Source: an uncultured bacterium (GTDB taxonomy: Bacteria > Fidelibacterota > Marinisomatia > Marinisomatales > UBA1611). Taken from it: a DNA stretch of 64,000 bases. Shown here piece by piece: positions 8,058 through 24,800 of the stretch (position 1 is the first letter of the stretch; the number at the start of each line of letters is the position of its first letter). Location of the stretch: NCBI GenBank assembly GCA_943788175.1, contig CALSPG010000007.1:96001-160000 (forward strand). The letters run 5' to 3'. The notes under the pieces are model-generated. The model made no database searches. It had not been told where the DNA came from and saw only the letters and a list, made by a program, of their open reading frames with translations. Both the position numbers and the translations under genes were made by a program.

Positions 8058-8060
8058 ATA

Positions 8061-9026
8061 TTAATTCCTATATAATGAAAAAACCCAAGAGGCTTCTTCT
8101 TTAGTGAGCCTTTCACTAAGCTCTCCCGCTGCCGCTGCTTGAGATTCGTTTCTTTGACCTAAAAGAGCGCACCCTGTAGGATTATCAAATAAGATTGATC
8201 CAAGCAATGCATGCATTATTGCATTATCCCCAAAATGAGCAAATTTTTCCTCTATTTTTATTCTATTTATCTGCATCTTTTTTATAAAATCAATATCTTG
8301 AAACTCTTTTACTGTTTTTCTAAAATCACCTTTTGGAAAAGCGGTAATAGAATCATATTTCCCTGTAAGTATACCATGTTTTATAGGTGAAAAAAAACAC
8401 ACACCTAGATTATTTGTTTTGACATAGGCTTTTAGTCCCGATGTATCATATTCAATATCAAAGACATTGTAAAGAGTTTGTACAACGTCAGGATTTACGA
8501 ATTTAATGAATTTCATAATTCTTGCTGAGGACCAATCTGACAAACCAATAAAACGTATTTTACCATCTTCTTTAAATTGGTTAATTATTTCTAGGGCGCC
8601 TTCAAGCATTTCATCATTATTTCCAAAATTACAGTGATGTAGATAAAGAATGTCAATATAATCAGTTCTAAGGTTTTTAAGAGACTTTTCAATTTTTTCT
8701 TTAATATAACTGGGTTCATACCATTGTTTGTATGGTCCTTTATCCCAGCCTACCTTGGTAGCAAGAAATATGCTTTTTCTTGAAATTTCTTTCCACATTG
8801 ATCCGATAATTTTTTCTGAGTGTCCTTCTCCATAAACATCAGCTGTATCCCAATGGTTTAAGCCCAATGAAAATGATTTTTTCAAGGCATTTATTGAGTC
8901 TAAATCAGATTGATCTGACCAGCCGACATTATGACCGCCGCTAGTATTCTGTTTACCATGTGACCATGCTCCGAGACTGATTATAGACACTTCTTCGTTT
9001 GTTCGACCTAAGGTAATTTTTTTCAT
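8061..9026 (-). CDS. Aldo/keto reductase
   Basis: DTADVYGEGHSE, LATKVG, SLKNLRTDYIDILYLH, GKIRFIGLS. Confidence 0.9.
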   Translation of the reverse strand: MKKITLGRTNEEVSIISLGAWSHGKQNTSGGHNVGWSDQSDLDSINALKKSFSLGLNHWDTADVYGEGHSEKIIGSMWKEISRKSIFLATKVGWDKGPYKQWYEPSYIKEKIEKSLKNLRTDYIDILYLHHCNFGNNDEMLEGALEIINQFKEDGKIRFIGLSDWSSARIMKFIKFVNPDVVQTLYNVFDIEYDTSGLKAYVKTNNLGVCFFSPIKHGILTGKYDSITAFPKGDFRKTVKEFQDIDFIKKMQINRIKIEEKFAHFGDNAIMHALLGSILFDNPTGCALLGQRNESQAAAAGELSERLTKEEASWVFSLYRN

Positions 9027-9084
9027 AGTATTATTATATAAACAAGGTAGTTAGTTAGCAATAAGATATTATAATTTTCACATT

Positions 9085-9420
9085 ATGCAGCAACATTATT
9101 TGAAAGTTTTGGACATAGGTCATAATGGAAAATCGCCTGATGAAGCAATGATGATCCTTGAGACGACAGTAAGTCAATGCTCTTTTGAAAACAAGATTAA
9201 AGCTATAAAAGTCATTACCGGTCATGGTTCCGGGAAATTACGAAAAATTGTAAGGGCATGGTGTAATGATCAAGAAGGTCGGTTTAATAAAGTAATATAT
9301 GGTGAAGACTATGATATGTTTAATAAAGATGCAGTTAATATGAGGAGTGATTGCAACCAACCTCTTGATAATGATTTTGGCAGGAAAAATGCAGCAGTAA
9401 CATATATATGGTTGAGGTAA
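9085..9420 (+). CDS. Stand-alone Smr (small MutS-related) domain protein
   Basis: LDIGH..SPDEAM, VITGHGSGKLR, N.AVTYIWL. Confidence 0.75.
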   Translation: MQQHYLKVLDIGHNGKSPDEAMMILETTVSQCSFENKIKAIKVITGHGSGKLRKIVRAWCNDQEGRFNKVIYGEDYDMFNKDAVNMRSDCNQPLDNDFGRKNAAVTYIWLR

Positions 9421-9421
9421 C

Positions 9422-10009
9422 ATGGTAAAAGCAAAACATATTAAACTTATTCTATTAATATTCGCTGGGGTTCATTTATTTAATTGTGCGGGTACAAATT
9501 ATAAAAAAATGAGTATTGAAGACCCTCGTTCGCTATTAGCGATTCAAGATTCGCTAATACTTGAAAACAAAAACAATCAAAATATTATGGATGCTCTAAT
9601 GACAGCTAATAACAATATGGGTAAAAACTATCTAATAAAAGGAGAATTGTTTTTAGCTATTGATCATTTTAAAAAAGCTATTTCTTTAAATAGTGAAAAT
9701 AAATTCTCTAAATATAGTTTGTTAATTGCTGAGGGCCGTGTGCTGATAAAAAGAGGAAATAAAAATGGTATGTGGGATGCTATTGAAAAGTTTTCAAAAG
9801 CTTCAAGTTTTTTCCCAGACAAAGGGGAGCCCTTTTATTGGATGGCTATTTCTTATACAAAACTAGGCGATACTGAATTTGATTTAATTCTTGAATCTTA
9901 CGAAAAATCTTTATCTTTGGAGTTAAGTGAAAATATTAAGAGTGAGGTTGAAAAAAAGTATGAAAAAGCAAAAAAGCGAAAACAAAAACTTGATTCATTT
10001 TGGAAATAA
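9422..10009 (+). CDS. TPR-repeat protein, probable lipoprotein
   Basis: Signal peptide ending LFNC; TPR-like helices (AIDHFKKAISLN, AIEKFSKA..FPD, YEKSLSLE). Confidence 0.7.
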   Translation: MVKAKHIKLILLIFAGVHLFNCAGTNYKKMSIEDPRSLLAIQDSLILENKNNQNIMDALMTANNNMGKNYLIKGELFLAIDHFKKAISLNSENKFSKYSLLIAEGRVLIKRGNKNGMWDAIEKFSKASSFFPDKGEPFYWMAISYTKLGDTEFDLILESYEKSLSLELSENIKSEVEKKYEKAKKRKQKLDSFWK

Positions 10010-10063
10010 TGCTGTGCCTTCCTCGTCGATTATACATAAATATTTATAGTAATTAATAATTTC

Positions 10064-10092
10064 TTGACACGCGATTGATTATTAAGTAAGAT
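10064..10092 (+). promoter_or_regulatory. Sigma70-type promoter of the motor operon
   Basis: TTGACA (10064-10069), 17-nt spacer, TAAGAT (10087-10092); SD-like GAGG at about 10138 before ATG 10148. Confidence 0.65.
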
Positions 10093-10147
10093 TGCTCCCA
10101 CTCTGCATTGTAAGATGCAAAGTGACTTAAAATATCCGAGGTAAGAT

Positions 10148-11311
10148 ATGAGATCACAATTGAGCTTTATAAGGCGAGTTGTTAGCTCGCTGTACGTTCT
10201 ATTGCTTTTAGGGCATTCTGTGTCTTTAGCTGCAAAGTACGACTTAAAGGGCACGGTAATAGGTGCTGATGGTAAAGTTAAAGTCGAACTAGCAGGCACA
10301 AAAAAGGATGCGCGGACTAAAAAAAATGGTGCGTTTAAATTAAGTAATGTTCCTGAAGGGGAATATACGCTTCAGGTTTTTCAGGATAAGAAAGTTATCC
10401 ACGAACAATCTATTAATGTAACGGAAGATGACGACAACTTAGAAGTTAAAGTTGGAGCTTCTTCTATTGCTCCTGTTGAAAAAACTGTTTCATCATTAAC
10501 ACCAGCTTCAGTAGCAACATCTGCAAATCCAATTGTCGAAAGTTCGCCAATTCCGCAAACTGCTGAGTCTTCTGGCGGAGCTTCAAATGACTTCATTGTA
10601 AATGAACTTAATTTTGAGATTAAAAAATTAACTGCTGAATTCAAGCACCTTAGTAGGGAGATGGATGATCTTAAGGCTTTAAGTAAAATGTGGATTAATC
10701 CTTTAACTATTTATTCTAAAGAAATAATTTTAAAAAATGGTAGTACTGTTTTTGGTAAAATTGTTTATCAAGACGATAAGTCCTTAAAAGTTGAAACTTT
10801 AGTGGGTTATCTTATCATAAAGCGTGATGAGGTAGTTCGAATAGTAGACAATGTAATTACTGAGGATCAGCAAGAATATGTTCCGGAGCAAATTAGAGAA
10901 AGTTATGCCCCTCCACCTATGCCAAAATTAACAGTTCCAAAGTATACTTCATCAAGTATGTCAAATAGGGATGCTGGCCAAAAATTTTCTGCTAATTGCG
11001 TCCTCATGGGAAATATTACTGAAAAGAAAGACAGCCAAGGTAATATTGTTTTTAATGGTGAAATTAAAAACATCGGTGGAAGAAGAGCTGATTTTGTTAA
11101 AATGGATTTTGTTTTTAGAAAAAATTGGAGCGGCGAAACCCGAACGCTCACTACTTTCATTCAAGGTTCATATAATACTTTTGACAGCGGTATTGTCTCT
11201 GATGCGAGTTTGCTTCCAGGTGCTCTCGGAAAATTCGAATTATATGTTCCACAAGATTTTGGATCATTCATAGGATATTCCTACGTTATTGATTGGGAAG
11301 AGTATCAATAA
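10148..11311 (+). CDS. Exported multidomain protein: carboxypeptidase-regulatory-like beta-sandwich, S/T/P/A linker, coiled coil, small beta domain and C-terminal FxLYD-like Ig domain
   Basis: Signal peptide (SLA|AK); LKGTV...T.KNGAFKLSNVPEGEYTL; IILKNGSTVFGKIV...IKRDEVVRI; FNGEIKNIGGRRADFVK...LLPGALGKF. Confidence 0.6.
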   Translation: MRSQLSFIRRVVSSLYVLLLLGHSVSLAAKYDLKGTVIGADGKVKVELAGTKKDARTKKNGAFKLSNVPEGEYTLQVFQDKKVIHEQSINVTEDDDNLEVKVGASSIAPVEKTVSSLTPASVATSANPIVESSPIPQTAESSGGASNDFIVNELNFEIKKLTAEFKHLSREMDDLKALSKMWINPLTIYSKEIILKNGSTVFGKIVYQDDKSLKVETLVGYLIIKRDEVVRIVDNVITEDQQEYVPEQIRESYAPPPMPKLTVPKYTSSSMSNRDAGQKFSANCVLMGNITEKKDSQGNIVFNGEIKNIGGRRADFVKMDFVFRKNWSGETRTLTTFIQGSYNTFDSGIVSDASLLPGALGKFELYVPQDFGSFIGYSYVIDWEEYQ

Positions 11312-11324
11312 AAATATTCCAAAT

Positions 11325-12203
11325 ATGTTTAAATACTTTTACATAATATTATTTTTTTCAATGTCTATGGCGGTTAGTCAGAATGGCGCTGGCGATACAT
11401 TTTTCCTAGATATGGGCGTTGTTATCCAGTCAGAAAACAAAGGGATAGCATTGCCTGACTTTTCTTCTCCGACACCTAGGCTAAAATCAAATAATATTGT
11501 CAAAACAATAGAATCTAGTTCTGTTTACATGGCGACAACATCTGATATGATTTCATCCTTGGATAGAATCACATCCCAAGTTACAGATATTGAAAAAGAT
11601 TTTGAATCGAAACTAGACATGCTAGAAATCGAAAACTTTAATTTGAGAAATCAAATTACTGGACTCAAAAAAAGGTTGAACGCTGAAATCTTAGATGCAA
11701 GTCTTATCGATGTTAATTTAGAGAAACCGCAAAAAGAATCATCACTTCCTTATGAGAACATCACAAAAAATTTAGAAATGAATGAAGTTGTCGCGCATTC
11801 TAATGATATTTTAACTAAAAGATCAGTTTTACAAAGATTTGATTTTGATATTTTTACTGAAGGCGTTATTCACTATAATAATGAAAAATATTACGATTGT
11901 ATTAGTAGTCTTAGCGTGCTGCCTGTGGATGATAATAGTAATAAAAACGCTAGTAAAACTTTATTTCTATTAGCTGATTCGTATGAAAACATGGGAAGAT
12001 ATAAACAAGCTCTTAATCATTTAGATAGATTGTCATTGGCTAATGATGATGAGTATTCAGATTTAATTTTATTTAAAAAAGGTATAATTTACAGAAACAT
12101 TGGCATGATGATTGAAGCGCAGAAAGCGTTTCAGGAGCTAGTTGAATCATTTCCCAAAAGTGAATTTAAAATCTTTGCTGAAGAAGAAATCCAAAATATA
12201 TAA
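11325..12203 (+). CDS. Exported coiled-coil plus TPR protein (CpoB/YbgF-like architecture)
   Basis: ATG 11325 gives signal peptide MFKYFYIILFFSMSMAVS|Q; heptad region LDMLEIENFNLRNQITGLKKRL; TPRs ending AFQELVESFPKSEF. Confidence 0.65.
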   Translation: MFKYFYIILFFSMSMAVSQNGAGDTFFLDMGVVIQSENKGIALPDFSSPTPRLKSNNIVKTIESSSVYMATTSDMISSLDRITSQVTDIEKDFESKLDMLEIENFNLRNQITGLKKRLNAEILDASLIDVNLEKPQKESSLPYENITKNLEMNEVVAHSNDILTKRSVLQRFDFDIFTEGVIHYNNEKYYDCISSLSVLPVDDNSNKNASKTLFLLADSYENMGRYKQALNHLDRLSLANDDEYSDLILFKKGIIYRNIGMMIEAQKAFQELVESFPKSEFKIFAEEEIQNI

Positions 12204-13582
12204 TGAGAAATATTAAAAACATTATAATCTTTTTTCTTATTACTTCAAGTATGATTTTCGCATCTGCCAGGGTTGCATACACTCGACCAGGGCTTATGAT
12301 GCGAATTCCAACATCAAGCATTCAAAAAGCTCCGTACATATTTAGAACGGGTTTTGGTGTTGAGTTGCATAATTTTGATCCAATAAATACCGCAAAAGGT
12401 GTTTATTTTGACATGGAATTTGGCAAGGGTTTTTCAGCTGGTTTTTCAGCTGTCCAAGGTGGTGATACTACCTCTTTAGACCTAATTTCAAAATCTCAAT
12501 ATTCGCCACAAGTAGAATTCGGTTTTCACTTTCAGCAAAGAGTCTTTGTTTACAATGATATTTCTCTATCTGCTGGATTGCAAGATATTGTTTTTCAAAA
12601 CAACCAAGATGACGAACAAGTTTTAAGTTTAAATACTGATCTATTGTCTTTTTTTCTAGTTTTAGCTAGTGAAAAAGACTTAGGTGATTATAAAATGAGC
12701 ACTTTCATGGGCTTCGGTACAGGAGGCCTTGGTCCAATGGATAGTGTCAAAGTAATAAGTGATTCAACGCAAACGGCAAATGCGGGTGTCTTTGTTGGAT
12801 TCTTATTGAAAACACCCTACTTCGGTAGAAATGGTGGAATGGATATTGTGGGTGAATTCGATGGAACAGGTGTCAATGTGGGACTCCGCATCCCCCTTAC
12901 CTCGGATTACCGCCTGAACCTTGGGTTCACCCACATAGAGCGTTTACCAAGTTGGAAAACGCGATATTGGACAGGCCATCCTGCTTTCACAATTGGATTT
13001 GATATGGCAGTCCCTAGAATTGGAGGGAGTTCGAGATCTTCAACTAGTGGGCCATCAAACCAGCCTTTATCAACCGCAAACCTGGCGTTTTCTAATGATG
13101 GAACTGTGCCAGCATATATGGATTCAACTATTGCTATGGCAGATTTCACAGTTATGTCATTAAGGGATTCCATGTTGATGATGAACAATGAAATGCGAAA
13201 TTTAATGGTTCAGCTTTCAGCCTTGGAGCAGGAGTCACAATTTCTTGTTGACTCATTGAAACAATTAAAACTCGGAAAAAATGTTCAAGAAAAAAATATG
13301 AATGAATCAATGAGACATCTATCACGGAGTCTTCGCTTCTTTTATGCTGGTGATTTTCGTGAAGCTTTGAAAGAAGTTGATTTATCATTGGAACTGAAAC
13401 CTGATTTAGCTCTAGCTTACGCTAGACGTGGTTCTATATATTACAAATTAGGTGATGTTCAAAGAGCCACAATTAATTGGAATTTAGCCCTTAGGTTAGA
13501 TCCCGAATATGATGATGTAAGAAATATTTTGAAGGCGCTTCATGAGAACCGTCTCAAAGATGCTAATTTATTTGAGGAGTAA
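12203..13582 (+). CDS. Putative outer-membrane beta-barrel (YjbH-like) fused to a coiled coil and C-terminal TPRs
   Basis: Signal peptide; GLMMRIPTS N-motif; amphipathic strands (GFHFQQRV, SLSAGLQDI, TFMGFGTG, VGEFDGTGVNVGLRI, FTIGFDM); coiled coil at about aa 320-370; TPR LKPDLALAYARRGSIYYKLGD...ALRLDP. Confidence 0.6.
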   Translation: MRNIKNIIIFFLITSSMIFASARVAYTRPGLMMRIPTSSIQKAPYIFRTGFGVELHNFDPINTAKGVYFDMEFGKGFSAGFSAVQGGDTTSLDLISKSQYSPQVEFGFHFQQRVFVYNDISLSAGLQDIVFQNNQDDEQVLSLNTDLLSFFLVLASEKDLGDYKMSTFMGFGTGGLGPMDSVKVISDSTQTANAGVFVGFLLKTPYFGRNGGMDIVGEFDGTGVNVGLRIPLTSDYRLNLGFTHIERLPSWKTRYWTGHPAFTIGFDMAVPRIGGSSRSSTSGPSNQPLSTANLAFSNDGTVPAYMDSTIAMADFTVMSLRDSMLMMNNEMRNLMVQLSALEQESQFLVDSLKQLKLGKNVQEKNMNESMRHLSRSLRFFYAGDFREALKEVDLSLELKPDLALAYARRGSIYYKLGDVQRATINWNLALRLDPEYDDVRNILKALHENRLKDANLFEE

Positions 13583-13585
13583 TTT

Positions 13586-14374
13586 ATGGATATTGCATTA
13601 ATTATAGGTGTTGTACTCGGTTTAGCTGCTATGATTGGTAGTATTGCTTATGCTCTATTTGTTGAGGGGTCAGCAGGGGGTTTTGGTAATTTTCTATCAG
13701 CACCTAGTTTTGGAATTGTATTTGGAGGTATGATAGCCTCTATTTTTGTTGCATTTCCGATGCCACACGTGGTTGCGCTAGGAAAAGCTATTGGAGCAGT
13801 GCTTAAACCAGCAGATGATAAGATGGGTGGATTAGTCGACGAAGCAGTTGAAGTTGCAGATGTCGGACGAAAAGGAGCAGCTGATCTCGAAAAATCAGTT
13901 GATAGTATTAAAAATTATTTTTTTAAAGATGGCGTGCAAATGGTTGTTGATGGCTACTCTTTAGACGAAATCACAGAAATTATGGAAACCAGAATTGAAT
14001 ACAGAGAGAAAAGGGAAAATGTTCAGAAATCCATGCTTAAATCTATGGGCGACCTTGCTCCTGCTTGGGGTATGGTAGGAACTCTAATTGGTTTAGTACT
14101 CATGTTAGCTGGTTTTGGTGGAGAAGGTGGAGCAGATAACCTTGGTGGTGGTATGGCGGCAGCGCTCATTACGACTCTTTACGGAGCTGTATTTGCCAAC
14201 TTGTTTTTTCTTCCAATGGCAGATAAAATGGGTAATAAAACTACTCAAACATCTATGTCAGCAGCGCTTTTAGTAGAGGCTGCTCGATTGATACATCAAA
14301 AGAAGCACCCATTAATCGTGCGAGAAAAATTAAACTCTTTCATTCCTCCTGGAGAGTGGAAATCAGAGGGCTAA
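13586..14374 (+). CDS. motA: Stator A subunit (MotA/PomA family)
   Basis: SFGIVFGG, GRKGAADLE, FFKDGVQMVVDG, APAWGMVGTLIGLVLML, MAAALITTLYGAVFANLFFLPMADK. Confidence 0.93.
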   Translation: MDIALIIGVVLGLAAMIGSIAYALFVEGSAGGFGNFLSAPSFGIVFGGMIASIFVAFPMPHVVALGKAIGAVLKPADDKMGGLVDEAVEVADVGRKGAADLEKSVDSIKNYFFKDGVQMVVDGYSLDEITEIMETRIEYREKRENVQKSMLKSMGDLAPAWGMVGTLIGLVLMLAGFGGEGGADNLGGGMAAALITTLYGAVFANLFFLPMADKMGNKTTQTSMSAALLVEAARLIHQKKHPLIVREKLNSFIPPGEWKSEG

Positions 14375-14383
14375 GGTTCTTTT

Positions 14384-15265
14384 ATGGCTGGAGCAGAATT
14401 CAAAAAAGGTTATAATAAAGGTTTCGCAGCTGGAGCGGACTCTGTTGAAGAGGGGCTTCCTGGATGGTTTGGAACGTTTGCAGACATGATGACTCTATTG
14501 TTTGCTTTTTTTGTATTATTAGCTGCTATTTCAACAATGGACCCTGTAAAGTTACAAGAGATGTCTAATTCTGAGGGTAAATCTCTTGGTAGTAAAATCA
14601 AATCTTCTGGAAAAGCCGAACTTGAAGGAGAGTTTGAGCCAATTAAAAATTTAGCTGCCATGAAAAAAGAAATGGAAGAAACCATTGAAGAAATGAAAAA
14701 AGAAAGCCCTAAAGGAGATCCTCCCATTGATATTCAAACTAGTTCAAAAGGGCTAATAGTGAATATTAAAGGTGATTACGCTTTCCCGATTGGTAAGGCA
14801 TCAATGAAAGAGGAGTTAAAAGGACTTTTAGATGAAGAAATAATACCTAAAATCCAAAATAGTCCATTCCAGGTAGAGGTCGCTGGGCATTCAGATTCTG
14901 ATAGAATGCCAAAAAAATGGAGGAAAACTTTTGCAACTAACTGGGAACTTTCTGCAGCAAGAGGTGCAAGTGTTGTAAGATATATGATAGATAAAGGGAT
15001 ACCCGCTCCAAGGCTATTAGCAGCTGGATACGGACCTTGGGCTCCGCACGGACTCGATAGTGTAAAAAAACAAAATCCGATGTGGAACCCGTTAACTCTG
15101 ACTTGGAAAAAGGCAGTTTTAACTAAAGATGGTAAAGAAATGCCAACGGTTTTGGGTCTTAATAAAAATGAAAAAATGAAGTCTAAAAACAGAAGAATTC
15201 AAATTACTTTTTTAAATCCGCCACATCATGGTAAGGGGCGGTCAGCAACTAGTTATGATGAATAA
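14384..15265 (+). CDS. motB: Stator B subunit (MotB/PomB family) with OmpA-like peptidoglycan-binding domain
   Basis: WFGTFADMMTLLFAFFVLL (essential Asp34), plug region, VAGHSD, NWELSAARG, GYG, NRRIQI. Confidence 0.93.
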   Translation: MAGAEFKKGYNKGFAAGADSVEEGLPGWFGTFADMMTLLFAFFVLLAAISTMDPVKLQEMSNSEGKSLGSKIKSSGKAELEGEFEPIKNLAAMKKEMEETIEEMKKESPKGDPPIDIQTSSKGLIVNIKGDYAFPIGKASMKEELKGLLDEEIIPKIQNSPFQVEVAGHSDSDRMPKKWRKTFATNWELSAARGASVVRYMIDKGIPAPRLLAAGYGPWAPHGLDSVKKQNPMWNPLTLTWKKAVLTKDGKEMPTVLGLNKNEKMKSKNRRIQITFLNPPHHGKGRSATSYDE

Positions 15266-15286
15266 ATACATACCGAGGAGTATTTC

Positions 15287-17098
15287 ATGATAAAAACAGG
15301 TTTAAATCTTAAAAAGAAGTTAGCAGTATTTATGCTAGCTGGTCTTTTAGTTGGGCAAGGTTCTGGCTACTTAGCACAGAAGCTAATGGTTGAAAATAAT
15401 ATTAGAGAGAGAGTTAAAGATGCTTTATCTAAAATTATTGACAATAATAAATACGTTATAAATGTTGATATAGATTTAGAGATTAGCGATGAAGTCGAAG
15501 AACAAATCACTGTATTGGCTGAAAGAGAATCAAGGCGTTCAGTAGTTGAAGATTCAAATGAAGAAACCGAAACTGAGAAATCATTATCAAGTATTCAACA
15601 ATCTATAGAATCAGAAGAAACATCTGAAAGGTCGAGTTATTCAGTGGGACTACCTATACCTGGGTTTGAGATGGACTTCACTAATTCAAATAAAAGTAAT
15701 AAAAAATCTGAAGAACCGAGACCACCTGTGATGTCTGTTGAAACTAAAAAACCTATTCAGGTTTCAAGTGTTGACAGGGACGCTAGCGAACCTAGGGTTG
15801 ATAAGGTTTTATCTAGAACTCGTCCTTCAAGAGCAGAAATTAAAAAAATGTATATTAGCTTGATTTTACAAGAAGGTGCTGCACCAGAATTAATTGAAAA
15901 TATTCGTCAATTGACAATGGCTGCCGCAAAATTTGATAGAAATCGTGGTGACAAGCTTACTATTATGACAGCAAGTTTTAGAGAAAAAAGAGATCAGCGC
16001 TCCGCAGAGCAGATTATGTTGAAAAACATCGCTGAAAAAATTGAATTATTAGAACAAAAAAGAGAATACGAAGAAAACACGCAAGATGCTACATGGAAAG
16101 ATGAGTTAACTAAATACAGGGATGAAGAAACTGCTAGACGAGAAGATGATAGAAGATTTTTCGAAGGTCAGATATCGCAATTAGAGCAACAGGCCAAAAA
16201 CAGAGCTTATAATCAAGAAAAACAAGATATGCTGTTGAGAGACTCTCTGAAGTTAAAAAAATTGAATGACGAAATTATGGCGCTTAAGTCAATGCTAAGG
16301 TCTTCTGAAAGAAGAGATAGTTTAAAAACAATCAGTAAGCAAGAACGAATTGATTCTCTAAGGTATGTTAGTCTAAGCAGTGAGTTAGATGAATTAGCAA
16401 AATCTCTTCAAGTGGCAGTAAAAACCAAATCAAAAGATGAAGAAGTTATAGCAAAGCGTAAGATTCAGGCTGAGATGGAAGATAGAGAAAAGCAAAAAGA
16501 AGAAAGAGAAAAAGAAATTTCTGATAAGATTCGTGAGCTTGATAGCGTCCAAGAAGAACTTGATCAGCTCCATGAAAACATGGAAAAAGAGAGCGGGAAT
16601 ACATTTATTATTTTAATTGCTCTAGGCGCTATTGTCTTTTTATTAATAATTGCATTAATTTTTATTTTATTAAAAAACAATAATAGGCAGGCTCCTGTCC
16701 CTCCTTGGATGATGCCTCCACCTCCTCGTAAACCAAGGAGAAGAAAAAGAGAAACTTCAAAAGAAAAAAAACCTATTGAAGCAAAAAAAATTGAAGAGCC
16801 AGCAGTTGTCGTACCTGAGCCAAAGCCTGAGCAAGCTGAAGTAAGCCAACCTGCTGAAAATACTTCTGGGCAAGAAAGTTCTTTACCATCAAGTGACGAT
16901 GATCCCGATGTCGTTCGTAGTGAAATAAATGATATCCGGAAATCAGTTGTATCCATGAGCGTTGGTCAGCCAGATAGAACTACAACTATTGTTAAGGAAT
17001 GGTTAGAACAACCAGAGCCTACACCTACAGCAGAGCCTGAGCAAGAATCTGCTGAAGATCCAGCAGATGGTAGTGATTCTGAAGAAAAAGAAAAGTAA
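15287..17098 (+). CDS. Divergent FliF-like ring protein: RBM3 only, long coiled coil, TM helix and FliG-binding C-terminus
   Basis: VENNIRERVKDALSKII...VINVDIDL and EIKKMYISLIL...IENIRQLTMAAAKFDRNRGDKLTIMTASF match the two halves of FliF RBM3. TM at about aa 439-462. IRKSVVSMSVGQPDRTTTIVKEWL matches the FliF C-terminal motif. Confidence 0.75.
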   Translation: MIKTGLNLKKKLAVFMLAGLLVGQGSGYLAQKLMVENNIRERVKDALSKIIDNNKYVINVDIDLEISDEVEEQITVLAERESRRSVVEDSNEETETEKSLSSIQQSIESEETSERSSYSVGLPIPGFEMDFTNSNKSNKKSEEPRPPVMSVETKKPIQVSSVDRDASEPRVDKVLSRTRPSRAEIKKMYISLILQEGAAPELIENIRQLTMAAAKFDRNRGDKLTIMTASFREKRDQRSAEQIMLKNIAEKIELLEQKREYEENTQDATWKDELTKYRDEETARREDDRRFFEGQISQLEQQAKNRAYNQEKQDMLLRDSLKLKKLNDEIMALKSMLRSSERRDSLKTISKQERIDSLRYVSLSSELDELAKSLQVAVKTKSKDEEVIAKRKIQAEMEDREKQKEEREKEISDKIRELDSVQEELDQLHENMEKESGNTFIILIALGAIVFLLIIALIFILLKNNNRQAPVPPWMMPPPPRKPRRRKRETSKEKKPIEAKKIEEPAVVVPEPKPEQAEVSQPAENTSGQESSLPSSDDDPDVVRSEINDIRKSVVSMSVGQPDRTTTIVKEWLEQPEPTPTAEPEQESAEDPADGSDSEEKEK

Positions 17099-17115
17099 GG
17101 ATAAGAGGTTAAGAT

Positions 17116-18060
17116 ATGATTACAGATTATAATCGCCTATCAGGGCTTCACAAAGTCGCAATTCTTTTCTCAGTGCTTGGTGAGAGTCTTGCTATGTCTC
17201 TTATTAAAGGCTTGTCTCGTACAGAAGTTCGAAAAATACGAGCAACTATTCGCGAAATGGGTAATGTTTCCTTTACTCTAAAAAGACGAGTTATGGAGGA
17301 ATTTTATTTTGGGTTTCTGAGCGAACAATTCTCTGATGAAAGTGATAATAATGAAGACGAAGGACCTATTAAGCCTTTTGAGTTTTTAACTGAAATGACA
17401 GATGAGCAACTTATTGCATTATTAGCAAATGAAGATGTCCCAGTTGTAGGAATTGCATTAGCTCAATTAGACGCAGGTAAAAGAATGACTATTTTAGAGC
17501 GAATGAAGCCTGAACAAAAAGGTAAAGTCCTTATTGAACTTGGTAGTTTACAAGAAATTCCATTAGAAGCTATTGTAGAAGTAGCTGGGAAGCTTAAAGA
17601 AAAAGCATCTTATCTACCAAAACCAGTAGAGTTTTCTAGAGGGGGAGCGAAAGAAATTGCTGACTTAATAGGAGAAATGGATGCAGACGAAGGTGAAAGA
17701 TATATGCAAACTCTTCAGAATGAAAATTCAGAGCTTTATAAAGCTGTAAAAATGCTTGTTCTAACGTTTGAAGATATTTTAGATAATTTCCCAGATGGAA
17801 TTTTAAGAGATCTTTGTAATAGTGTTGAGCTTGATTCTTTGTCTATGGCTATGAAAGGCATAGATCAAGAGGTCGTAGATAGGGTAGTGGGTAATTTGCC
17901 TCAAAAGAAACAAGCCATGTTTGAACCAGTAGAGGGGCCTAAACCAAAAAGAGAAGTTGATGATGCTAGAAAAATTATTGTTTCTGCAGCGAAAGAAATG
18001 GAAAAAGAAGGAGCTTTTAATTTAGCTGATATGATGGGCGGCGGAGAGATGGTAGAGTAG
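17116..18060 (+). CDS. fliG: FliG-like rotor protein (divergent)
   Basis: LSGLHKVAILFSVLGE (N domain), PFEFL...QLIALL (M domain), RGGAKEIADLI (GG linker), LTFEDI, GPKPKREVDDARKII..KEMEKEG (C domain). Confidence 0.9.
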   Translation: MITDYNRLSGLHKVAILFSVLGESLAMSLIKGLSRTEVRKIRATIREMGNVSFTLKRRVMEEFYFGFLSEQFSDESDNNEDEGPIKPFEFLTEMTDEQLIALLANEDVPVVGIALAQLDAGKRMTILERMKPEQKGKVLIELGSLQEIPLEAIVEVAGKLKEKASYLPKPVEFSRGGAKEIADLIGEMDADEGERYMQTLQNENSELYKAVKMLVLTFEDILDNFPDGILRDLCNSVELDSLSMAMKGIDQEVVDRVVGNLPQKKQAMFEPVEGPKPKREVDDARKIIVSAAKEMEKEGAFNLADMMGGGEMVE

Positions 18061-18087
18061 CATTATTGTTCTACAATTAATTGTTTT

Positions 18088-18115
18088 AAAAAAGCCCCGG
18101 TATCGGGGCTTTTTT
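18088..18115. terminator. Bidirectional intrinsic terminator between fliG and ppdK
   Basis: AAAAAA-GCCCCG-gtat-CGGGGC-TTTTTT between convergent genes. Confidence 0.92.
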
Positions 18116-18126
18116 AATTAATATAA

Positions 18127-20823
18127 TTAAACTAATTCAGCTTGTGCGGCTGAAAGTCTTGCAATAGGAACACGGTATGGAGAGCAGCTAACATAATCTA
18201 ATCCATTATTTCTGCAAAAATGAACAGAATCTGGGTCACCACCATGTTCACCGCAGATACCAATTTTTAAAGATGGATTAACTTCTCTTCCATACTGAAC
18301 TGCCATTGTTACCAATTTACCTACACCTTTAACATCTAAACTTTGAAATGGATCTCCTGGTAAGATCTTCCGATCTAAGTATTCAGGTAAAAAAGAGCCT
18401 ATATCATCTCTGCTAAAACCATATGTGGTCTGAGTTAGATCATTGGTTCCAAAACTGAAAAACTCTGCATGCTCCGCAATTTCATCTGCAGTCAAGCATG
18501 CTCTTGGCAGTTCAATCATTGTACCAACTAAATAGTTCAATTTTAAATTAAATTTATTTTCAACTTCTGAAGCTACAGTACGAATTATTTTTTCTTGGTC
18601 TACATATTCTGTAACAGTTCCTATTAAAGGTATCATTATTTCTGGTAAAACATTTAGACCTTCGTTTAATAGTTCTGCAGTTGCTTCCAAGATAGCGCGT
18701 GCTTGCATTTCAGTTATAGCAGGATAAGCAATTCCCAATCGGCATCCACGGTGACCAAGCATTGGGTTTAATTCATGAAGACTTGCTATACGTTGGCTTA
18801 TAACTGACTTGTCAATTCCTATATTATTTGCTAATTCAGTTATCTGCTTATCATCTAAAGTAATAAATTCATGAAGAGGAGGGTCTAATAGTCTAATTGT
18901 TACTGGCTTTCCTTCCATCGCTTTTAAAATTTCTTTAAAATCTTCTTTTTGAAATGGTAATAATCCCATTACAGCTTTTCTTCTGTTATCATCATTTTCT
19001 GACAGTATCATTTTTCTCATAGCAAGAATTCTTTTTTCATCAAAAAACATATGCTCAGTTCTACAAAGACCAATTCCTTCAGCACCAAATTTTATTGCTT
19101 GTTGAGCATCTTCAGGACTTTCAGCATTTGTTCTTATCTTTAACTTTCTATATTCATCTGCCCAAATCATTAATTCTTTATATTCATTATTTTTATCTGG
19201 ATCTGCTGGTATAAGATCTAATTGGCCAAGATAAACTACACCTAAGGTACCATTCATTGTTATCCAGTCACCTTCATTTATTACTTTACTGCCAATTGTT
19301 AGAGTCTTTTTTTCTAAAGATATATTGATTTCGTTACATCCTACAATACAGCATTTTCCCCACCCTCTTGCAACCAATGCAGCATGAGAAGTCATACCTC
19401 CTCTAGCAGTTAAAATTGCTTCAGCAGCATGCATTCCATGAACATCTTCTGGCGAGGTTTCTTCTCTAACAAGAATTACTTTTTCGCCCTTAGCATTCCA
19501 TGCCTCTGCATCATCAGCTGTAAACACCACTCTTCCTTTTGCTCCACCTGGTCCAGCTGGAAGACCTTTTGTCAATTTTATAGCTTTATCTTCACTAGCC
19601 TTATCTAAAGTTGGGTGCAGTAATTCATCAAGTTGATTTGGGTTGACTCTCATTAGAGCAACTTTTTTATCAATCATCTTTTCTTTATACATTTCAACAG
19701 CTATTTTTATTGCAGCTACGCCATTACGTTTTCCTACTCTGGTTTGTAGCATCCATAATTTCCCCTCTTCTATTGTAAACTCGATATCTTGCATGTCAGA
19801 GTAATGTTGTTCAAGTCTGTTTTTTATATTAAAAAGCTCTTCATATATTTTTGGCATTAAATCTTCTAATGAAGGTAGGTGATTTGTTTCTTCTGTTTTT
19901 GTGTCTTCATTCAATGGGTTAGGAGTTCTGAGTCCAGCAACGACATCTTCACCTTGCGCATTAGTAAGCCACTCGCCAAAGAATTCATTTTTGCCTGTAG
20001 CAGGGTTTCTTGTAAAAGCAACGCCAGTTGCTGAATCTTCCCCAGTATTTCCAAAAACCATAGTTTGAACATTTACAGCTGTTCCCCATTTTTCTGGTAT
20101 ATTTTCAATTTTTCTATAACTAATTGCTCTAGAACCATTCCAACTTTTAAAAACGGCTTCTATTCCGCCCCATAATTGATCTTCAGCATTATCTGGGAAT
20201 TCTGACCCGAGGGATGTCTTTATCTCATTTTTAAATATTTCTATAACCTTTTTCCAATCATTTTCAGATAAGTCGGTATCATTTTCTAAATTGTTGTTAG
20301 ACTTGTAAGTAGATAGATGATGTTCAAGTTTATGTCTAATTCCTTTATCTCCATCTGGTTCGATACCTGCAGCTTTTTCCATTACTACATCAGAATACAT
20401 TGTTATAAGTCTTCTATATGCATCATAAACAAATCTAGGGTTATTAGTTTTTTCAATAAGCCCGGGTATTGTCTCACTTGTTAATCCAATATTTAGCACT
20501 GTTTCCATCATACCTGGCATAGATTGTCTTGCTCCAGATCTTACTGACAAAAGTAATGGGTTGTCTGCATCGCCAAATTTTGTGCCCATTATGGATTCAA
20601 CTTCAGATAATGATTTTTTTACTTCACTAGTTAGGCTTTCAGGGAACGACCTATTATTTTTGTAATACTCTGTACAGACTTCCGTGGTAAGAGTAAATCC
20701 CGGGGGGACAGGAATGTCTAGCAAATTCATTTCTGCTAGATTTGCGCCTTTCCCTCCAAGTAAATTTTTCATATCAGCTTTACCATCTGCCTTACCATCA
20801 CCAAAATTATATACATACTTCAT
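18127..20823 (-). CDS. ppdK: Pyruvate, phosphate dikinase
   Basis: LLGGKGANLAEM, LLLSVRSGA..SMPGMM, GGMTSHAA (phospho-His), GIGLCRTEHMF, SFGTNDLTQ, GICGEHGGDP. Confidence 0.98.
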   Translation of the reverse strand: MKYVYNFGDGKADGKADMKNLLGGKGANLAEMNLLDIPVPPGFTLTTEVCTEYYKNNRSFPESLTSEVKKSLSEVESIMGTKFGDADNPLLLSVRSGARQSMPGMMETVLNIGLTSETIPGLIEKTNNPRFVYDAYRRLITMYSDVVMEKAAGIEPDGDKGIRHKLEHHLSTYKSNNNLENDTDLSENDWKKVIEIFKNEIKTSLGSEFPDNAEDQLWGGIEAVFKSWNGSRAISYRKIENIPEKWGTAVNVQTMVFGNTGEDSATGVAFTRNPATGKNEFFGEWLTNAQGEDVVAGLRTPNPLNEDTKTEETNHLPSLEDLMPKIYEELFNIKNRLEQHYSDMQDIEFTIEEGKLWMLQTRVGKRNGVAAIKIAVEMYKEKMIDKKVALMRVNPNQLDELLHPTLDKASEDKAIKLTKGLPAGPGGAKGRVVFTADDAEAWNAKGEKVILVREETSPEDVHGMHAAEAILTARGGMTSHAALVARGWGKCCIVGCNEINISLEKKTLTIGSKVINEGDWITMNGTLGVVYLGQLDLIPADPDKNNEYKELMIWADEYRKLKIRTNAESPEDAQQAIKFGAEGIGLCRTEHMFFDEKRILAMRKMILSENDDNRRKAVMGLLPFQKEDFKEILKAMEGKPVTIRLLDPPLHEFITLDDKQITELANNIGIDKSVISQRIASLHELNPMLGHRGCRLGIAYPAITEMQARAILEATAELLNEGLNVLPEIMIPLIGTVTEYVDQEKIIRTVASEVENKFNLKLNYLVGTMIELPRACLTADEIAEHAEFFSFGTNDLTQTTYGFSRDDIGSFLPEYLDRKILPGDPFQSLDVKGVGKLVTMAVQYGREVNPSLKIGICGEHGGDPDSVHFCRNNGLDYVSCSPYRVPIARLSAAQAELV

Positions 20824-20866: not shown

Positions 20867-21853
20867 TTATTTATAGATATTTGAAATCCATGGTTTAAAC
20901 TTAAATTCTTTTTTTAGTTTTATGGAAACTTGCTTTGCTACAGAAATCATTTTGTACTCACCATGCTGGACTCTGAACCAAGTTCTCTCTTTTACCCAAG
21001 CTTCTGTTACTTTTGAGGGATAACCCAAATTTGTCATTTTTTTTGCTAGATTTTCTGCTGCTTTTTTATTCTCAAAAGAGTTTAGTTGAATTGTGTAATA
21101 CTCGGTTTTTCCTTTTTTGTCTTTTTTTAATATTTTGTGCGGAGGCGATGTTTTGACTTGATTAGCCAATTTAATAATAGGTTTTAAACCTGGCTTCTTT
21201 TTTTTAATCGTTTTTATGATGTTTATAGCTTCGGCTTTATTGATATAACCACTTGAAATTAACTTGTAGAAATCGCTTCCTTCAGAAGATTTAATTTTTT
21301 CTAAAGATAATGAAATATTATTTAAAGTTAGGTCTTTAAATAAATTTTTTGCGTTATTCTCATTTCGGAAAGATGCTATTTGCACATAGTAGTTTTCACT
21401 ATTTATGGTTTTTGACAGATTTTGTTTTTCTTCTGGAGGTTGGTTTAATTTTGTTGCAGGTGCTTCTTTTAGCTTTTTAATATTAATGTTTTTTTCATTG
21501 TTATCTTTTTTTATATCAGCTAAATATATGGCTTCTAACCAACCTTCTTTATTATTGAAAATAGTTTTGTAGTACACTTTTTCATTGTCCGTAGCGCTTA
21601 CTACTATTTTTTCAAGTGCATTTACTTTGATGAAAGCAGGAATTTCATCAATTATTTCTTTACTGAGGACATCTCCATACAGACTTGCATCTTGCTTAGT
21701 TACAAATGTTATTTCAACTGTTTCTTGTGACAGTATTTCATTTTGATTACCGCATGCAGAATGGGATGTTAAGGTGATTAAGATGAAGAGAATAACTATA
21801 AGATATTGGGATAATATTTTATAGTTTATATTTTTTAAATGATTATATCTCAC
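20867..21853 (-). CDS. Envelope protein with two SPOR domains and an N-terminal SH3-like domain
   Basis: N-terminal hydrophobic segment; YYKTIFNNKEGWL; YYVQIASFRNENNA and YTIQLNSFENKKAAENL...WFRVQHGEY. Confidence 0.8.
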   Translation of the reverse strand: MRYNHLKNINYKILSQYLIVILFILITLTSHSACGNQNEILSQETVEITFVTKQDASLYGDVLSKEIIDEIPAFIKVNALEKIVVSATDNEKVYYKTIFNNKEGWLEAIYLADIKKDNNEKNINIKKLKEAPATKLNQPPEEKQNLSKTINSENYYVQIASFRNENNAKNLFKDLTLNNISLSLEKIKSSEGSDFYKLISSGYINKAEAINIIKTIKKKKPGLKPIIKLANQVKTSPPHKILKKDKKGKTEYYTIQLNSFENKKAAENLAKKMTNLGYPSKVTEAWVKERTWFRVQHGEYKMISVAKQVSIKLKKEFKFKPWISNIYK

Positions 21854-21897
21854 AAGATTGCGACTAATTGTTAGTAAGATAATATTAATAAAAGTAA

Positions 21898-24800
21898 TTA
21901 AAAAACAGGGGAGAAGTATCTTATTTCTTTTAAATTCCCTTTATTGTTATAAAAATACCATTTATCAACCATTTTTCCACTTTTATATGCACCTTGCATT
22001 TCTTTGCGTGTCTTATCATAATCTCGCCAACTCGTCCAGGTACCGTCTTTTTTCCCATTTAGATATTCACCCTCTGTAAGTTTTCCATCCTCAAAATATG
22101 CTATCCATTTCCCGTTTTTGAGACCTTCGTTAAAAAGTCCTTCCTGAGTTTTTTTACCGCTCTCATTGTAAAACACCCACTTACTATGCGCATTACCATT
22201 TTTTAAGGTACCTTCTTTTTCTTTTTCTCCATTTTTATAATAAAATGTCCATTTACCATTGTAAATACCATTTTCATAGGTACCAATATCTTTTATTTGT
22301 TGGTTAGAGTAGTATGTTGTCCATAAGCCGTGTTTTTTGCCATCTTTATATGCTCCTAAAGTTTCTTTTCCACCGCTCCATGTTCCTCTGGGTTGAGGCT
22401 CTGGAACAGGCATTAAAACAACTTCAGGGACTTTTTTGCTCTCGTACCACCTAATCCAAGGTCCGTCTTTTTTACCATTCAGTAATCTACCTAAAAATAA
22501 ATACTCTTCTTCTTTGTTTTCATCTGCGATTACACCGGTAAACGGTTTGGTATTATCATTAATTTTATAGAGTAGTTCAGTTTCGTCAATTTTAGATAAA
22601 TCTTTAAATTTTACATGGTCAAGGTTTTTTCCGTAGTCAAAAGTAAAATCAACTTGCCCATCTTTATTCCAGTAAGTCCAAACACCTTCGGGTTTAGAAA
22701 GATTTTTTTCAATATTGGCAGATAAGTTTCCTTCTTTCTTCTTACTACCGTTTTTATAAAAATATGTAGTTAACCCATCTTTAATATTCTTTTTGTGGAA
22801 CCCTTGTTCCATAATTTGGTCACTATTTAAATACCAAGTTACCCATGGGCCATTTGCTATCTCTTTTCCTGTTTCAGATTCTCCTTTATAAGTAATCATT
22901 TTTGACCTGAAACCATCAATCCAAGATGTTGCAGGTCCGTTAAGCTCTCCGTTTTTCCAAAATTTTTCGTATTGTTTTCCTAGACTATCTGACGAAGAGA
23001 TAACCCATTTAGTTTCTCTTCCATTTAGGAGATCATTTGAATAAGTAAGCTCTTGAGTTACAGCTCCATCTTTATTGTAGTAAAGCCAAAGTCCAGATCT
23101 TTCATTTTTTGAAAATGTTCCCTCACTGCTTTTTATTCCTGTTGGAAACCACGAAAACCAAGCGCCCTCCTTTAAGCCGTCTATGTAGTATCCCTCTTCT
23201 TCTTTATTGTCGTTTAAATACCACCACCAGCTCCACAATTCATTACTTTCATCTTTATAGACACCATCTTTGTATTCCCAGTTTCCATTTTCTACATATT
23301 TAAGAGTGGGGTCTTCTTTATACCATTTTGTCCATCTGCCATGCGGGAGCCCTTTTTTATACCGTTGTTCTTCTTTTAGATGCCCATTATCAAACCAATA
23401 TTTATATAAGCTATCAACTTTCCCGAAACTAAAAGTTCCTTGTTCCTTTGATTTACCATTATTATACGAAAGAGACCATTCCCCGTGTTTTTTACCTCTA
23501 TAATATTCACCTTGGACTTCAACTTGTCCGTTATCATACCACTGAACCCATTTACCATCTCTCGCACCATCTAAAAATCTTCCAAGAAGTTTGTATCCTC
23601 TTTTACCACCAATTTCTTCAACGATTCCAGTATAAGGCTCATATTTACCAATCTTGTAAGTAATACCATCACGTTCTTCAATTTCACCTAAAGTGACTCT
23701 CTCTAAACCATCACCGTAATCAAATTTTAGCCACCTTTTTCCACCTTTTTCCCAATAAGTCCATTCGCCTTCTCTTTCTTTACCTCTCATGATGCCTTGT
23801 CTATCAATGTCACCTTCTTTATACCATTTGGTCACATTACCGTCGATTATATCATTTACAAAAGTTTCTTCATGGAGTTTATGATATGCAGCTCCAGAAG
23901 AATCATTCCAAACGGTCCATACACCATGTTTTTTTTCTTCTTTGTAGAAGCCTTCTTTGTCTTTGAGCCCATTGCTTCTCCACCAAACCCAGGGGCCATC
24001 TTTTTGACCTTCAAGATAGCTAGACTTGAGGGAGTCTACCCCGGTTGTATACCAATAATGCCAAGCACCATCTCTATCACCATTTTTAAAATTTTTATGA
24101 AACTTTTTGTGCTGATCACTTGAATCGCCAAACCATTTAATATGCGGCCCATTTTTAATACCAGTATTATAATTTATTTCTTCACTTTTCTGTCCGTTTT
24201 TACCCCAAAAAACCCATTTATTGTGTTTTTTGTTATCAATGTAATCTCCATCTTGTTCTTTGATTATTCCACCTTGGTACCAACGAATGTATTTACCGTT
24301 GAGTTTTCCATCACTATAAGTAGCAAGAAATCTTTTATTACCATTTTCATACCAAGTGTTCCAGGTGCTATCTCTTTCACCGTTTTTAAAGTTTCTTTCT
24401 CTTCTTTTTTGGCCATCTTCAAACCATTCTGTCCACAAACCTTCTTGTACACCATCGATGTAAAAGGTTTCTTCTTTTTTAATTCCGGTTTCTTTGTAAT
24501 AGAGTGTCCACAACCCTTGCTGCTTTCCATTAATGTAGTTTTTTTCTTCTATTTTGTTACCATTAGAGTTCCAGTAAGATTGCAGGCCACTAAACTTACC
24601 GTTAGAATAATTTAGTTCAGTTTTTCTTTTTCCATCCTTAAAAAATTCTGTCCATGTTCCATCTCGGTTGCCATTTAAGTAGTTGCCTTGGAGTTTTAAT
24701 TTTGGTTTAAATTCTGGGATAACTACTTCGATTGAGTCCCACCGTCCATTATTTTCTAGTGTATCTTTAGTATTGGCTTCACCATCTTCACCGTAATCAT

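Follow-up and report, generated by a model that had tools for sequence, protein, structure and literature searches.

A FliF relative reduced to RBM3 and its collar, with a modular helical stalk: putative ring subunit of a flagellum-independent rotor in Fidelibacterota

The window analysed here is a stretch of 64,000 nucleotides (nt) from an uncultured bacterium of the Fidelibacterota (assembly GCA_943788175.1, contig CALSPG010000007.1, positions 96,001 to 160,000). Within it, at 15287..17098 on the + strand, an open reading frame with an ATG start encodes a FliF-like protein of 603 residues, which is a FliF relative consisting of the RBM3/collar region alone. Work on FliF has so far treated it as the structure that encloses the flagellar export gate. 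What use is its ring domain without the rest of the protein? Directly beside the gene lie genes for FliG, MotA and MotB, and no other flagellar parts were found; the protein probably serves as rotor in a motor that has not been described before. Our favoured reading, which we hold to be likely, is that it forms the ring subunit of a flagellum-independent rotor, made of RBM3 and collar only and carried on a hairpin stalk. The closest known protein is FliF, and the closest known system is the rotor-stator core of the flagellum.

The assignment to RBM3 draws on sequence and structure comparisons. The Pfam model YscJ_FliF_C (PF08345) matches residues 47-231 over its full length (profile 1-147 of 147; E 3e-7; bit score 31.4, cut-off 23.8). 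For A1, a profile built from 34 members of the family, the best matches in the PDB were FliF structures (6scn at E 6e-6, with three further FliF entries), starting from Salmonella residue 241, and hhalign placed residues 34-233 of A1 on residues 237-431 of E. coli FliF (probability 92.7%, E 4.2e-7). When the AlphaFold model was searched with Foldseek, 18/18 matches at E<=0.001 were RBM3/S-ring chains of FliF, with TM-scores on the target of 0.29-0.62, and the next match stood at E 0.06. VIA-align, which is independent of Foldseek, matched the model to FliF of Vibrio and Salmonella at Z 15.5, 15.4 and 13.4, the second of these overlaying model residues 25-232 on Salmonella FliF 231-438. The original prediction, made from the letters of the DNA, had placed an RBM3-like domain directly after the N-terminus and ended it near residue 231, and all of these comparisons agree with it.

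As in FliF of Salmonella and Vibrio (6scn, 8z5v, 8z4d), the domain is split into an alpha-beta-beta and a beta-alpha-beta half by an insert at the collar position. The first half (residues 24-76, 15356..15514; this and all other parts of the protein are on the + strand) is modelled as helix 26-47 and strands 56-66 and 70-76 with a predicted local distance difference test score (pLDDT) of 89-95, and Q31 and K32 are invariant in the 34-member alignment. The second half (residues 173-231, 15803..15979) ends in ...RGDKLTIMTASF and is modelled with strands at 173-179, 183-195 and 223-229 and one helix, 200-213 (pLDDT 93-96); its invariant residues are R207, G221, D222 and F231, the last of these belonging to ...TASF. 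Between the halves, a low-complexity acidic and Ser-rich insert (residues 77-172, 15515..15802), predicted to be disordered (pLDDT <50), occupies the site of the beta-collar and loop of canonical FliF. It measures 79 +/- 5 residues within the order and carries a conserved LPIPGF motif, with P125 invariant and G126 nearly so, which hhalign pairs with G-x-P-G in E. coli FliF. Further likenesses to FliF are a C-terminal transmembrane helix, a cytoplasmic tail that ends in a Trp-containing helix, and the adjacent fliG gene.

The regions that precede RBM3 in FliF were not found. PF01514, the RBM1/RBM2 family, was not among the nine Pfam families that matched the protein at E<=10, and the genome that carries the window had no match to it at the same threshold. 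All FliF alignments begin at FliF residues 231-241, and only about eight residues separate the likely cleavage site from the helix that opens RBM3, too few to accommodate RBM1/2. The lack of both domains had been predicted, as had the outcome that YscJ_FliF_C would match and YscJ_FliF would not; the Pfam searches returned just that, and Foldseek returned FliF. The NCBI equivalog model for FliF, TIGR00206, reached 21.7 bits against a cut-off of 129.75 and aligned residues 32-254 to profile positions 241-457 only. Since this score falls below the cut-off, the protein is a FliF derivative and not, by annotation standards, a FliF orthologue.

Where FliF begins with its first transmembrane helix, TM1, this protein begins with a stretch that resembles a signal peptide (residues 1-23, 15287..15355). 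After the basic stretch MIKTGLNLKKK come 12 hydrophobic residues and G|Q24, the likely cut being LVG|Q24. Kyte-Doolittle hydropathy reaches a maximum of just 1.59 (residues 12-30), and the hydrophobic region appears too short and too weakly hydrophobic to form a transmembrane helix. The run is short across all 34 family members, and the position of Gln24 is occupied by Gln in 33 of them. Cleavage sites were also surveyed with a crude picker, blind to Gln, that was run on 1999 ATG-initiated reading frames of the same genome. It returned 281 signal-like N-termini, in which Gln was the commonest +1 residue (58/281, 20.6%, against a background of 2.9%), a sevenfold enrichment genome-wide; Cys, the residue of lipoproteins, came second at 10%. 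Bacteroidetes reportedly prefer Gln after signal peptidase I sites, which fits the excess seen here. The weak hydropathy and the conserved Gln fit the N-terminal hydrophobic stretch of the original prediction and its possible cut at LVG|Q.

A single transmembrane helix follows much later (residues 439-462, 16601..16672; hydropathy 3.44). Its flanks are acidic on the N-terminal side and strongly basic on the C-terminal side (KNNNR...RKPRRRKR), and therefore residues 24-438 are assigned to the periplasm and residues 463-603 to the cytoplasm. The original prediction of a transmembrane helix with a Pro-rich, basic tail is borne out by this helix and the stretch after it. Unlike canonical FliF, the mature protein is probably a single-pass type I membrane protein.

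How much of a flagellum does this organism have? The genome (2.27 Mb, 92.2% complete) gave no match at E<=1 to FHIPEP (FlhA), FliP, Flg_bb_rod or FliMN_C, models that each matched control genomes. The missing matches to export gate, rod and lower C-ring set this genome apart from those that carry FliF proper. The original prediction had a periplasmic coil replace the rod exported by the type III secretion system, and as regards the flagellum it is supported, with export gate, rod and FliM/N not found in a genome of this completeness.

The genes that are present make up a rotor and a stator. MotA (262 residues, 13586..14374, + strand) is a MotA/PomA-type stator A subunit (Pfam MotA_ExbB, E 3e-27); its best NCBIfam matches are MotP (2e-52) and PomA (3e-45), both under their equivalog cut-offs, and in the PDB it matches MotA (9lu9, 2e-36) and PomA (8brd, 4e-34), with the R-K...E loop of Vibrio PomA aligned. 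MotB (293 residues, 14384..15265, + strand) has the plug (MotB_plug, 9e-15), an OmpA-like peptidoglycan-binding domain (7e-10) and an Asp within its transmembrane segment ...FADMMTLL.... FliG (314 residues, 17116..18060, + strand) has all three of its domains (FliG_N 2.5e-13, FliG_M 1.9e-8, FliG_C 1.2e-20) and matches T. maritima FliG (1lkv, 4e-17), the two acidic residues of the torque helix being aligned. The residues of the model proteins follow their customary numbering. Judged by alignment, and for MotB directly from its sequence, the flagellar-type features of rotor and stator are kept: the R-K...E loop of MotA, the acidic pair of FliG and the Asp of MotB. In its three-domain FliG, its MotP/PomA-type MotA with a charged loop, and its MotB with plug, membrane Asp and OmpA-like domain, the set resembles the flagellar torque core (FliG ring, MotA5B2/PomA5B2). 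It differs from that core in having no FliM/FliN match and in being encoded together with a barrel/TPR protein, a TPR protein and a CarboxypepD_reg protein, none of them flagellar parts. At about residues 100-115, FliG reads E-D-V-P-V where the middle domain of T. maritima FliG has E-H-P-Q, a stretch known as the FliM-binding motif. This alteration, together with the lack of a match to the FliM/N C-terminal domain in the genome, would fit a rotor without the lower C-ring.

Could the ring be a stationary one? Rings of the RBM type scaffold sporulation and injectisome machineries, and the protein might form a static periplasmic scaffold or channel collar in the manner of SpoIIIAG or YscJ/PrgK, with FliG and MotAB doing no more than anchor it, or else sense or power conformational change as Tol/Ton systems do. 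SpoIIIAG (5wc3), a non-flagellar RBM3-like ring protein with an insert in the same place, is indeed a detectable structural neighbour (Z 7.8 over 83 residues, rank 50), and the TPR and outer-membrane-barrel partners recall scaffolds of the Tol-Pal/BamD type through weak NCBIfam matches. It falls far behind FliF (Z 15.4), however, the sequence profiles match FliF only, and SpoIIIAG has no FliG-binding tail, stator genes or helical stalk. The original prediction had set the protein beside both SpoIIIAG and FliF, and of the two it is FliF from which, by sequence, the family derives. The stator, moreover, belongs with flagellar MotP/PomA/MotA, MotB plug included, and not with ExbB/TolQ; FliG retains three domains and its torque-helix acidic pair, and MotA the loop that faces FliG. 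Torque generation is the only known role of the MotA/FliG interface. We regard a static ring as quite unlikely.

The cytoplasmic end of the protein offers a candidate contact to FliG. Beyond the membrane lies a disordered linker rich in Pro, Arg and Lys (residues 463-539, 16673..16903; pLDDT mostly <50), followed by two conserved tail helices, 540-560 and 562-574 (together residues 540-574, 16904..17008; pLDDT 79-85). These hold ...SMSVGQPDRTTTIVKEWL (residues 553-572), a candidate FliG_N-binding element, and E546 and W572 are invariant in 18/18 tails. By translation, an acidic end (residues 575-603 with the stop codon, 17009..17098; pLDDT <50) completes the protein. When the tail was compared by hhalign with the last 30 residues of E. 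coli FliF, 27 columns aligned, Trp on Trp, at E 0.0039. When FliG 1-100 and tail residues 533-588 were modelled as a complex, the ipSAE scores were 0.46, 0.46 and 0.47, the best control scoring 0.00; the runs had at least 84% of contacts in common, and the partner pLDDT was at least 63. The mark used is passed by 58/80 solved complexes and 2/110 mismatched pairs, and a score of <=0.60 is a weak pass, as seen in 7/80 solved complexes and in both mismatches, counts that are approximate here as our own alignments were used. As the structure of a similar FliF-FliG complex is already solved, the pass may also reflect resemblance to it. The modelling thus lends weak support to a binding of the tail to the N-domain of FliG.

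Between RBM3 and the membrane lies the part of the protein that departs furthest from FliF, in which the link is short. Here it spans about 207-208 residues; the family median is 165 and the range 45-208, with length classes near 130, 165 and 200 residues. The spacer proper (residues 232-438, nt 15980-16600) is 47% Asp, Glu, Lys and Arg, contains no Pro and is modelled as helices 238-358 and 368-465 with a break at 359-367 (pLDDT 50-58), in accord with the roughly 207 charged, helical periplasmic residues of the original prediction.

Alignment of the family resolves the spacer into modules. A linker helix (residues 232-264, 15980..16078), amphipathic and 33 residues long, which is also the family median, is occupied in at least 25 of the 34 members and has conserved hydrophobic residues at 243-245, 248, 252 and 255. 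It leads into a variable charged helix of ER/K-like character (residues 265-302, 16079..16192), 38 residues here and 1-80 across the family. Next comes arm A of a putative hairpin (residues 303-345, 16193..16321; 43 residues, median 43, range 36-43 in 32 members), with conserved hydrophobic residues every 3-4 positions from 305 to 337. A tip insertion of 43 residues (346-388, 16322..16450) is specific to this clade, being present in 3/34 members (30-43 residues) and in none of the other 31, and the break in the AlphaFold helix falls within it. Arm B (residues 389-432; 44 residues, which is also the median) runs on through a juxtamembrane segment of 6 residues (433-438; 7 by an alternative call of the transmembrane helix, 5-14 in the family), arm and segment together spanning 16451..16600. 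In the model, the helix of arm B continues into the transmembrane helix.

Length varies almost wholly in the variable module and in the tip insertion of this clade. Among 16 genomes of the same order the spacer measures 162.6 +/- 2.7 residues, a coefficient of variation of 1.7% at 48% identity, as against 6.5% for the collar insert and 11% for the cytoplasmic linker at similar or higher identity. Its length is under constraint and does seem to matter. The comparison of coil length across homologues that had been proposed at the outset has two sides: the length is narrowly held within the order, and family-wide it is modular, from 45 to 208 residues.

Is this spacer the coiled coil that it was predicted to be? 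Family-averaged hydrophobicity shows heptad-like seams about 33-36 residues long in both arms. In arm B the periodicity of 3.5-3.6 residues is significant (z 5.7, reached by 2/2000 shuffles); the corresponding family-column values are 1.7 in arm A, 1.6 in the linker and 1.75 in the variable segment. Residues 255-312 are 48% charged and 17% core hydrophobic, with an excess of opposite-charge pairs at i/i+3 and i/i+4 (z 3.3, a value reached by 2/1000 shuffles), a charge pattern like that of ER/K single alpha-helix spacers and not like that of a coiled coil. The term coiled coil is borne out in part, periodicity being significant in one of the two arms, arm B.

The original prediction had let the coil reach about 30 nm if fully extended and so hold the ring near the outer membrane. 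Such a parallel coiled coil or palisade, stretched to as much as ~30 nm, would lift the RBM3 ring to the outer membrane and serve as a built-in drive shaft or cage in place of the rod exported by the type III secretion system. Some features suit it: about 192/207 spacer residues are predicted helical, Pro is missing, and the length is ruler-like within clades (the coefficient of variation given above) and falls into classes. The operon's outer-membrane barrel protein, moreover, needs a periplasmic partner, and rod genes (Flg_bb_rod) were not found in this genome. The internal structure of the spacer points the other way. Model residues ~303-435 superpose, by VIA-align, on two-helix antiparallel hairpin proteins, among them the designed TMHC2 (6b87; 99/100 residues, 3.1 A), an EsxA/EsxB chain (4lws; 100/100 residues, 3.1 A), FliJ (3ajw; 132/134 residues, 4.7 A), prefoldin, EmrA (113 residues, 4.0 A) and LipC. 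These superpositions serve solely to read the shape of the model, and no sequence relationship is claimed; the likeness to the periplasmic adaptor hairpins of EmrA and LipC is likewise one of structure. The conserved arms are equally long and the lineage-specific insertion sits at their junction, at the low-pLDDT break, which is the pattern expected of a hairpin that grows at its tip. Nearly all length variation, furthermore, resides in a charge-rich, hydrophobic-poor module that is unlikely to be a coiled coil, and two family members have spacers of just 45-52 residues. As a matter of general knowledge, a wide rotating cage of 19-30 nm would have to traverse the very peptidoglycan layer to which MotB is bound; a gene for a P-ring-like bushing was not noticed, although no search was aimed at one. 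The modular spacer, its equal arms, its break, the hairpin superposition and the ER/K-like segment together turn us away from the 30 nm coil and a ring near the outer membrane, and we consider an extended shaft unlikely, though the strongest of the alternatives weighed here.

We return to the hairpin, and think it rather probable, on the strength of the model, that the arms form an antiparallel hairpin on the stalk. How tall would it be? At an assumed 0.15 nm per helical residue, 71 residues would make the hairpin of this protein about 10.6 nm tall, and members that lack the tip insertion would have one of about 7.6 nm. It would stand on the membrane, because arm B runs on into the transmembrane helix. 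With arm A heading back towards the membrane, the tether to the ring would comprise 71 residues and reach at most ~10.6 nm from the base of the hairpin; across the family, tethers of 34-113 residues would correspond to 5-17 nm. Full extension to ~30 nm would then mark the upper limit, a reading less favoured by the evidence. The 121-residue helix cannot pack straight along the 71-residue helix, because RBM3 would then end below the membrane; a bend is consequently needed near residue 303, where the conserved arm starts.

How might these parts work together? In the rotor that we favour, the FliF-like protein would be exported, cut before Gln24 and held in the inner membrane by its one C-terminal helix. 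Many copies would join through RBM3 into a ring like the S-ring, as fold and homology suggest. Each subunit would contribute a stalk made of the 33-residue amphipathic linker, the 38-residue charge-rich single helix and an antiparallel hairpin with arms of 43 and 44 residues and a 43-residue tip insertion, projecting some 10 nm into the periplasm. The ring would thus be tethered within ~10 nm of the inner membrane and not at the outer membrane. On the cytoplasmic side the tail may bind the N-domain of the adjacent FliG, and MotA/MotB of the MotP/PomA type, anchored to peptidoglycan, would drive the FliG ring, as the conserved interface residues suggest. The stalk would pass rotation on to the periplasmic ring and to the palisade of hairpins, and palisade or ring might, more speculatively, engage the co-encoded barrel and TPR proteins through the helices and TPR domains that these possess.

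Several observations weigh against this reading. The geometry is inferred from superposed PDB chains, and the hairpin itself comes from a monomer AlphaFold model built on just 34 sequences; AlphaFold is prone to doubling long helices back when it models a monomer. The hairpin matches have VIA Z scores of 8-9, in the range rated unspecific for helical models. Arms of equal length are also compatible with two stretches of an oligomeric coil that runs parallel, and in the single sequence heptad periodicity is weak (z -0.4 for helix 238-358 and z 2.2 for helix 368-438). The hhalign match of the tail, although correctly placed, is weak (probability 8.5%), and the tail profile (A2) found no FliF peptide in the PDB, its two chance matches being to homeobox proteins (E 0.7 and 1.2). 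The predicted FliG-binding motif accordingly keeps its conserved Trp helix, a weak hhalign register and a weak complex score on one side, and has the missing PDB match on the other. Ring assembly, rotation and contact with the partners are likewise predictions. The 55 phylum genomes, among 151 sampled, without the family make the protein dispensable, and contigs from RNA libraries cannot prove transcription, as DNA may be present in such libraries.

The same data bear on a further question: is the gene simply a decaying, functionless relic of an ancestral flagellum? The other flagellar families searched had no match in this genome, and the gene has been lost from those 55 genomes, as a relic might be. 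A profile search nevertheless found the family in 96/151 sampled genomes of the Marinimicrobia/Fidelibacterota, in 69/96 high-quality genomes and in 51/61 genera; a single-sequence search found it in 92/151. Reading frames are intact in nearly all matches, the motifs are kept across those genera, module lengths are constrained, and the gene order is fixed and includes non-flagellar partners. Contigs from marine metatranscriptomes of four studies cover the FliF-like gene at identities of at least 95%, mostly at least 99%, and span its junctions with MotB and with FliG. A relic is thus very improbable. Where contigs of runs X2, X5 and X9 leave stretches of the operon uncovered, nothing follows for its expression. 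Close homologues carry the database name Candidatus Neomarinimicrobiota; an atlas look-up returned only Fidelibacterota clusters at a score >=0.92, the canonical FliF cluster scoring 0.81; and a phmmer search with residues 1-240 against 1.84 billion representative proteins gave 120 matches, with canonical FliF barely among them.

The FliF-like gene is the sixth of seven in a tight operon whose neighbours overlap or lie 3-21 nt apart, in the order CarboxypepD_reg protein, TPR protein, barrel/TPR protein, MotA, MotB, FliF-like protein, FliG. The first two, both recognised by Pfam, occupy 10148-11311 and 11289-12203 on the + strand. Loci were fetched from 18 other genomes of the phylum: MotA, MotB, the FliF-like gene and FliG are contiguous in 17/18, the eighteenth ending at a contig edge, and the CarboxypepD_reg gene lies upstream in 18/18. 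By eye, MotB length had no obvious relation to the length of the FliF-like protein in these 18 loci. The best-conserved member of the operon is the barrel/TPR protein (459 residues, 12203..13582, + strand), which AlphaFold models (pLDDT 73) with strands in residues 45-271, a helix of 78 residues (305-382) and a TPR region (385-457); Foldseek finds 12-stranded barrels (FapF 5o68 at 2.7e-5, NanC, OmpG) and TPR proteins, indicating an outer-membrane barrel followed by a long helix and TPR. Helical segments were also seen by eye in the CarboxypepD_reg protein (~35 residues) and the TPR protein (~50 residues), the 78-residue helix being the only one of them predicted by a model. These partner helices may be docking partners for the stalk. 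A shared 'LRDSL...EI..L' motif in arm A and the helix of the barrel/TPR protein was considered and dropped, as hhalign of A1 against the barrel/TPR profile, A4, gave a probability of 2.7% and aligned the N-termini only.

What would such a motor do? It could be a free-standing rotary machine of the envelope, in which the crown of hairpins grips the helices and TPR domains of the barrel proteins and ion flow through MotAB moves or energises something at the outer membrane, such as the handling or secretion of surface proteins. We put this forward tentatively, as one possibility that is on balance improbable. If it were true, the machine would either descend from the flagellar motor in stripped-down form or preserve a model of the kind of rotor that preceded the flagellum and worked with no type III export apparatus.

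A connection with type IX secretion was considered as well. GldLM/PorLM, which serves type IX secretion and gliding, is an ion-driven inner-membrane motor of the FCB group whose periplasmic extension passes motion towards rings associated with the outer membrane, and to this extent it is analogous. It differs in being a 5:2 motor with its own B-type subunit as shaft, where in the present system several stators would drive a separate multi-subunit FliF/FliG rotor. The translocon protein SprA is encoded in this genome outside the window (G000:C7:329197-333384; 587 bits against a cut-off of 200) and was found in 149/151 genomes of the phylum. GldM and GldL had no match in this genome in searches that had no positive control; phylum-wide, GldM was found in 0/151 genomes with TIGR03517 and in 0/151 with PF12081, neither of which matched any control genome, and these counts do not show absence. 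That the operon stands in for a missing GldLM motor is of low probability. An obligate partnership with SprA was rejected, as genera g5 (0/7) and g31 (0/22) keep SprA without the FliF-like gene. The window also encodes, at 575-4108, a large CotH/LTD protein with a C-terminal sorting domain of the type IX secretion system.

Why does an RBM3-only FliF matter? In a genome in which export gate, rod and switch were not found, it would show that the module of MS-ring, FliG and MotAB can persist alone, and it makes testable the idea that the core of the flagellar motor functions, or arose, apart from type III secretion. The stalk yields predictions of its own: a hairpin of ~10 nm, a ring <=10 nm from the inner membrane, length classes set by one variable module, and pyroglutamate at the mature N-terminus. 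Members of the phylum abound in the ocean, and marine RNA libraries contain the genes. Full-text literature searches, supplementary files aside, turned up neither a flagellum-less FliF/FliG/MotAB operon nor an RBM3-only FliF, and passages of PMC12505986 and PMC13277936 describe neither.

Some minor observations concern the locus and its variants. Some matches to the FliF-like gene hold one in-frame stop, TGA in three genomes of genus g35 (G029, G070, G110) and TAG in two others; loci with in-frame stops were also recorded in G045, G117 and G105. They may stem from read-through of the terminal stop, from sequencing errors or from true breaks. At 7557-9265 of locus L029 (G055) the barrel/TPR gene is split into two overlapping reading frames of 229 and 354 residues, which may be due to a frameshift or an assembly error. 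Scans of 9000-18600 for promoters (36 against 31.4 +/- 4.9 by chance) and terminators (5 against 6.0 +/- 2.5) stayed at chance level. Downstream, beyond a convergent gene for pyruvate phosphate dikinase, the minus strand at 20867-24981 encodes a SPOR-domain protein (328 residues) and a MORN-repeat protein (1027 residues). Contigs from the RNA libraries of runs X1 and X2 have 12 extra nt behind nt 16813; the insertion keeps the frame and adds one repeat of the Pro/Glu/Lys type to the cytoplasmic linker. It agrees with 607-residue variants among near-identical homologues, and the linker thus varies in length at the level of strains.

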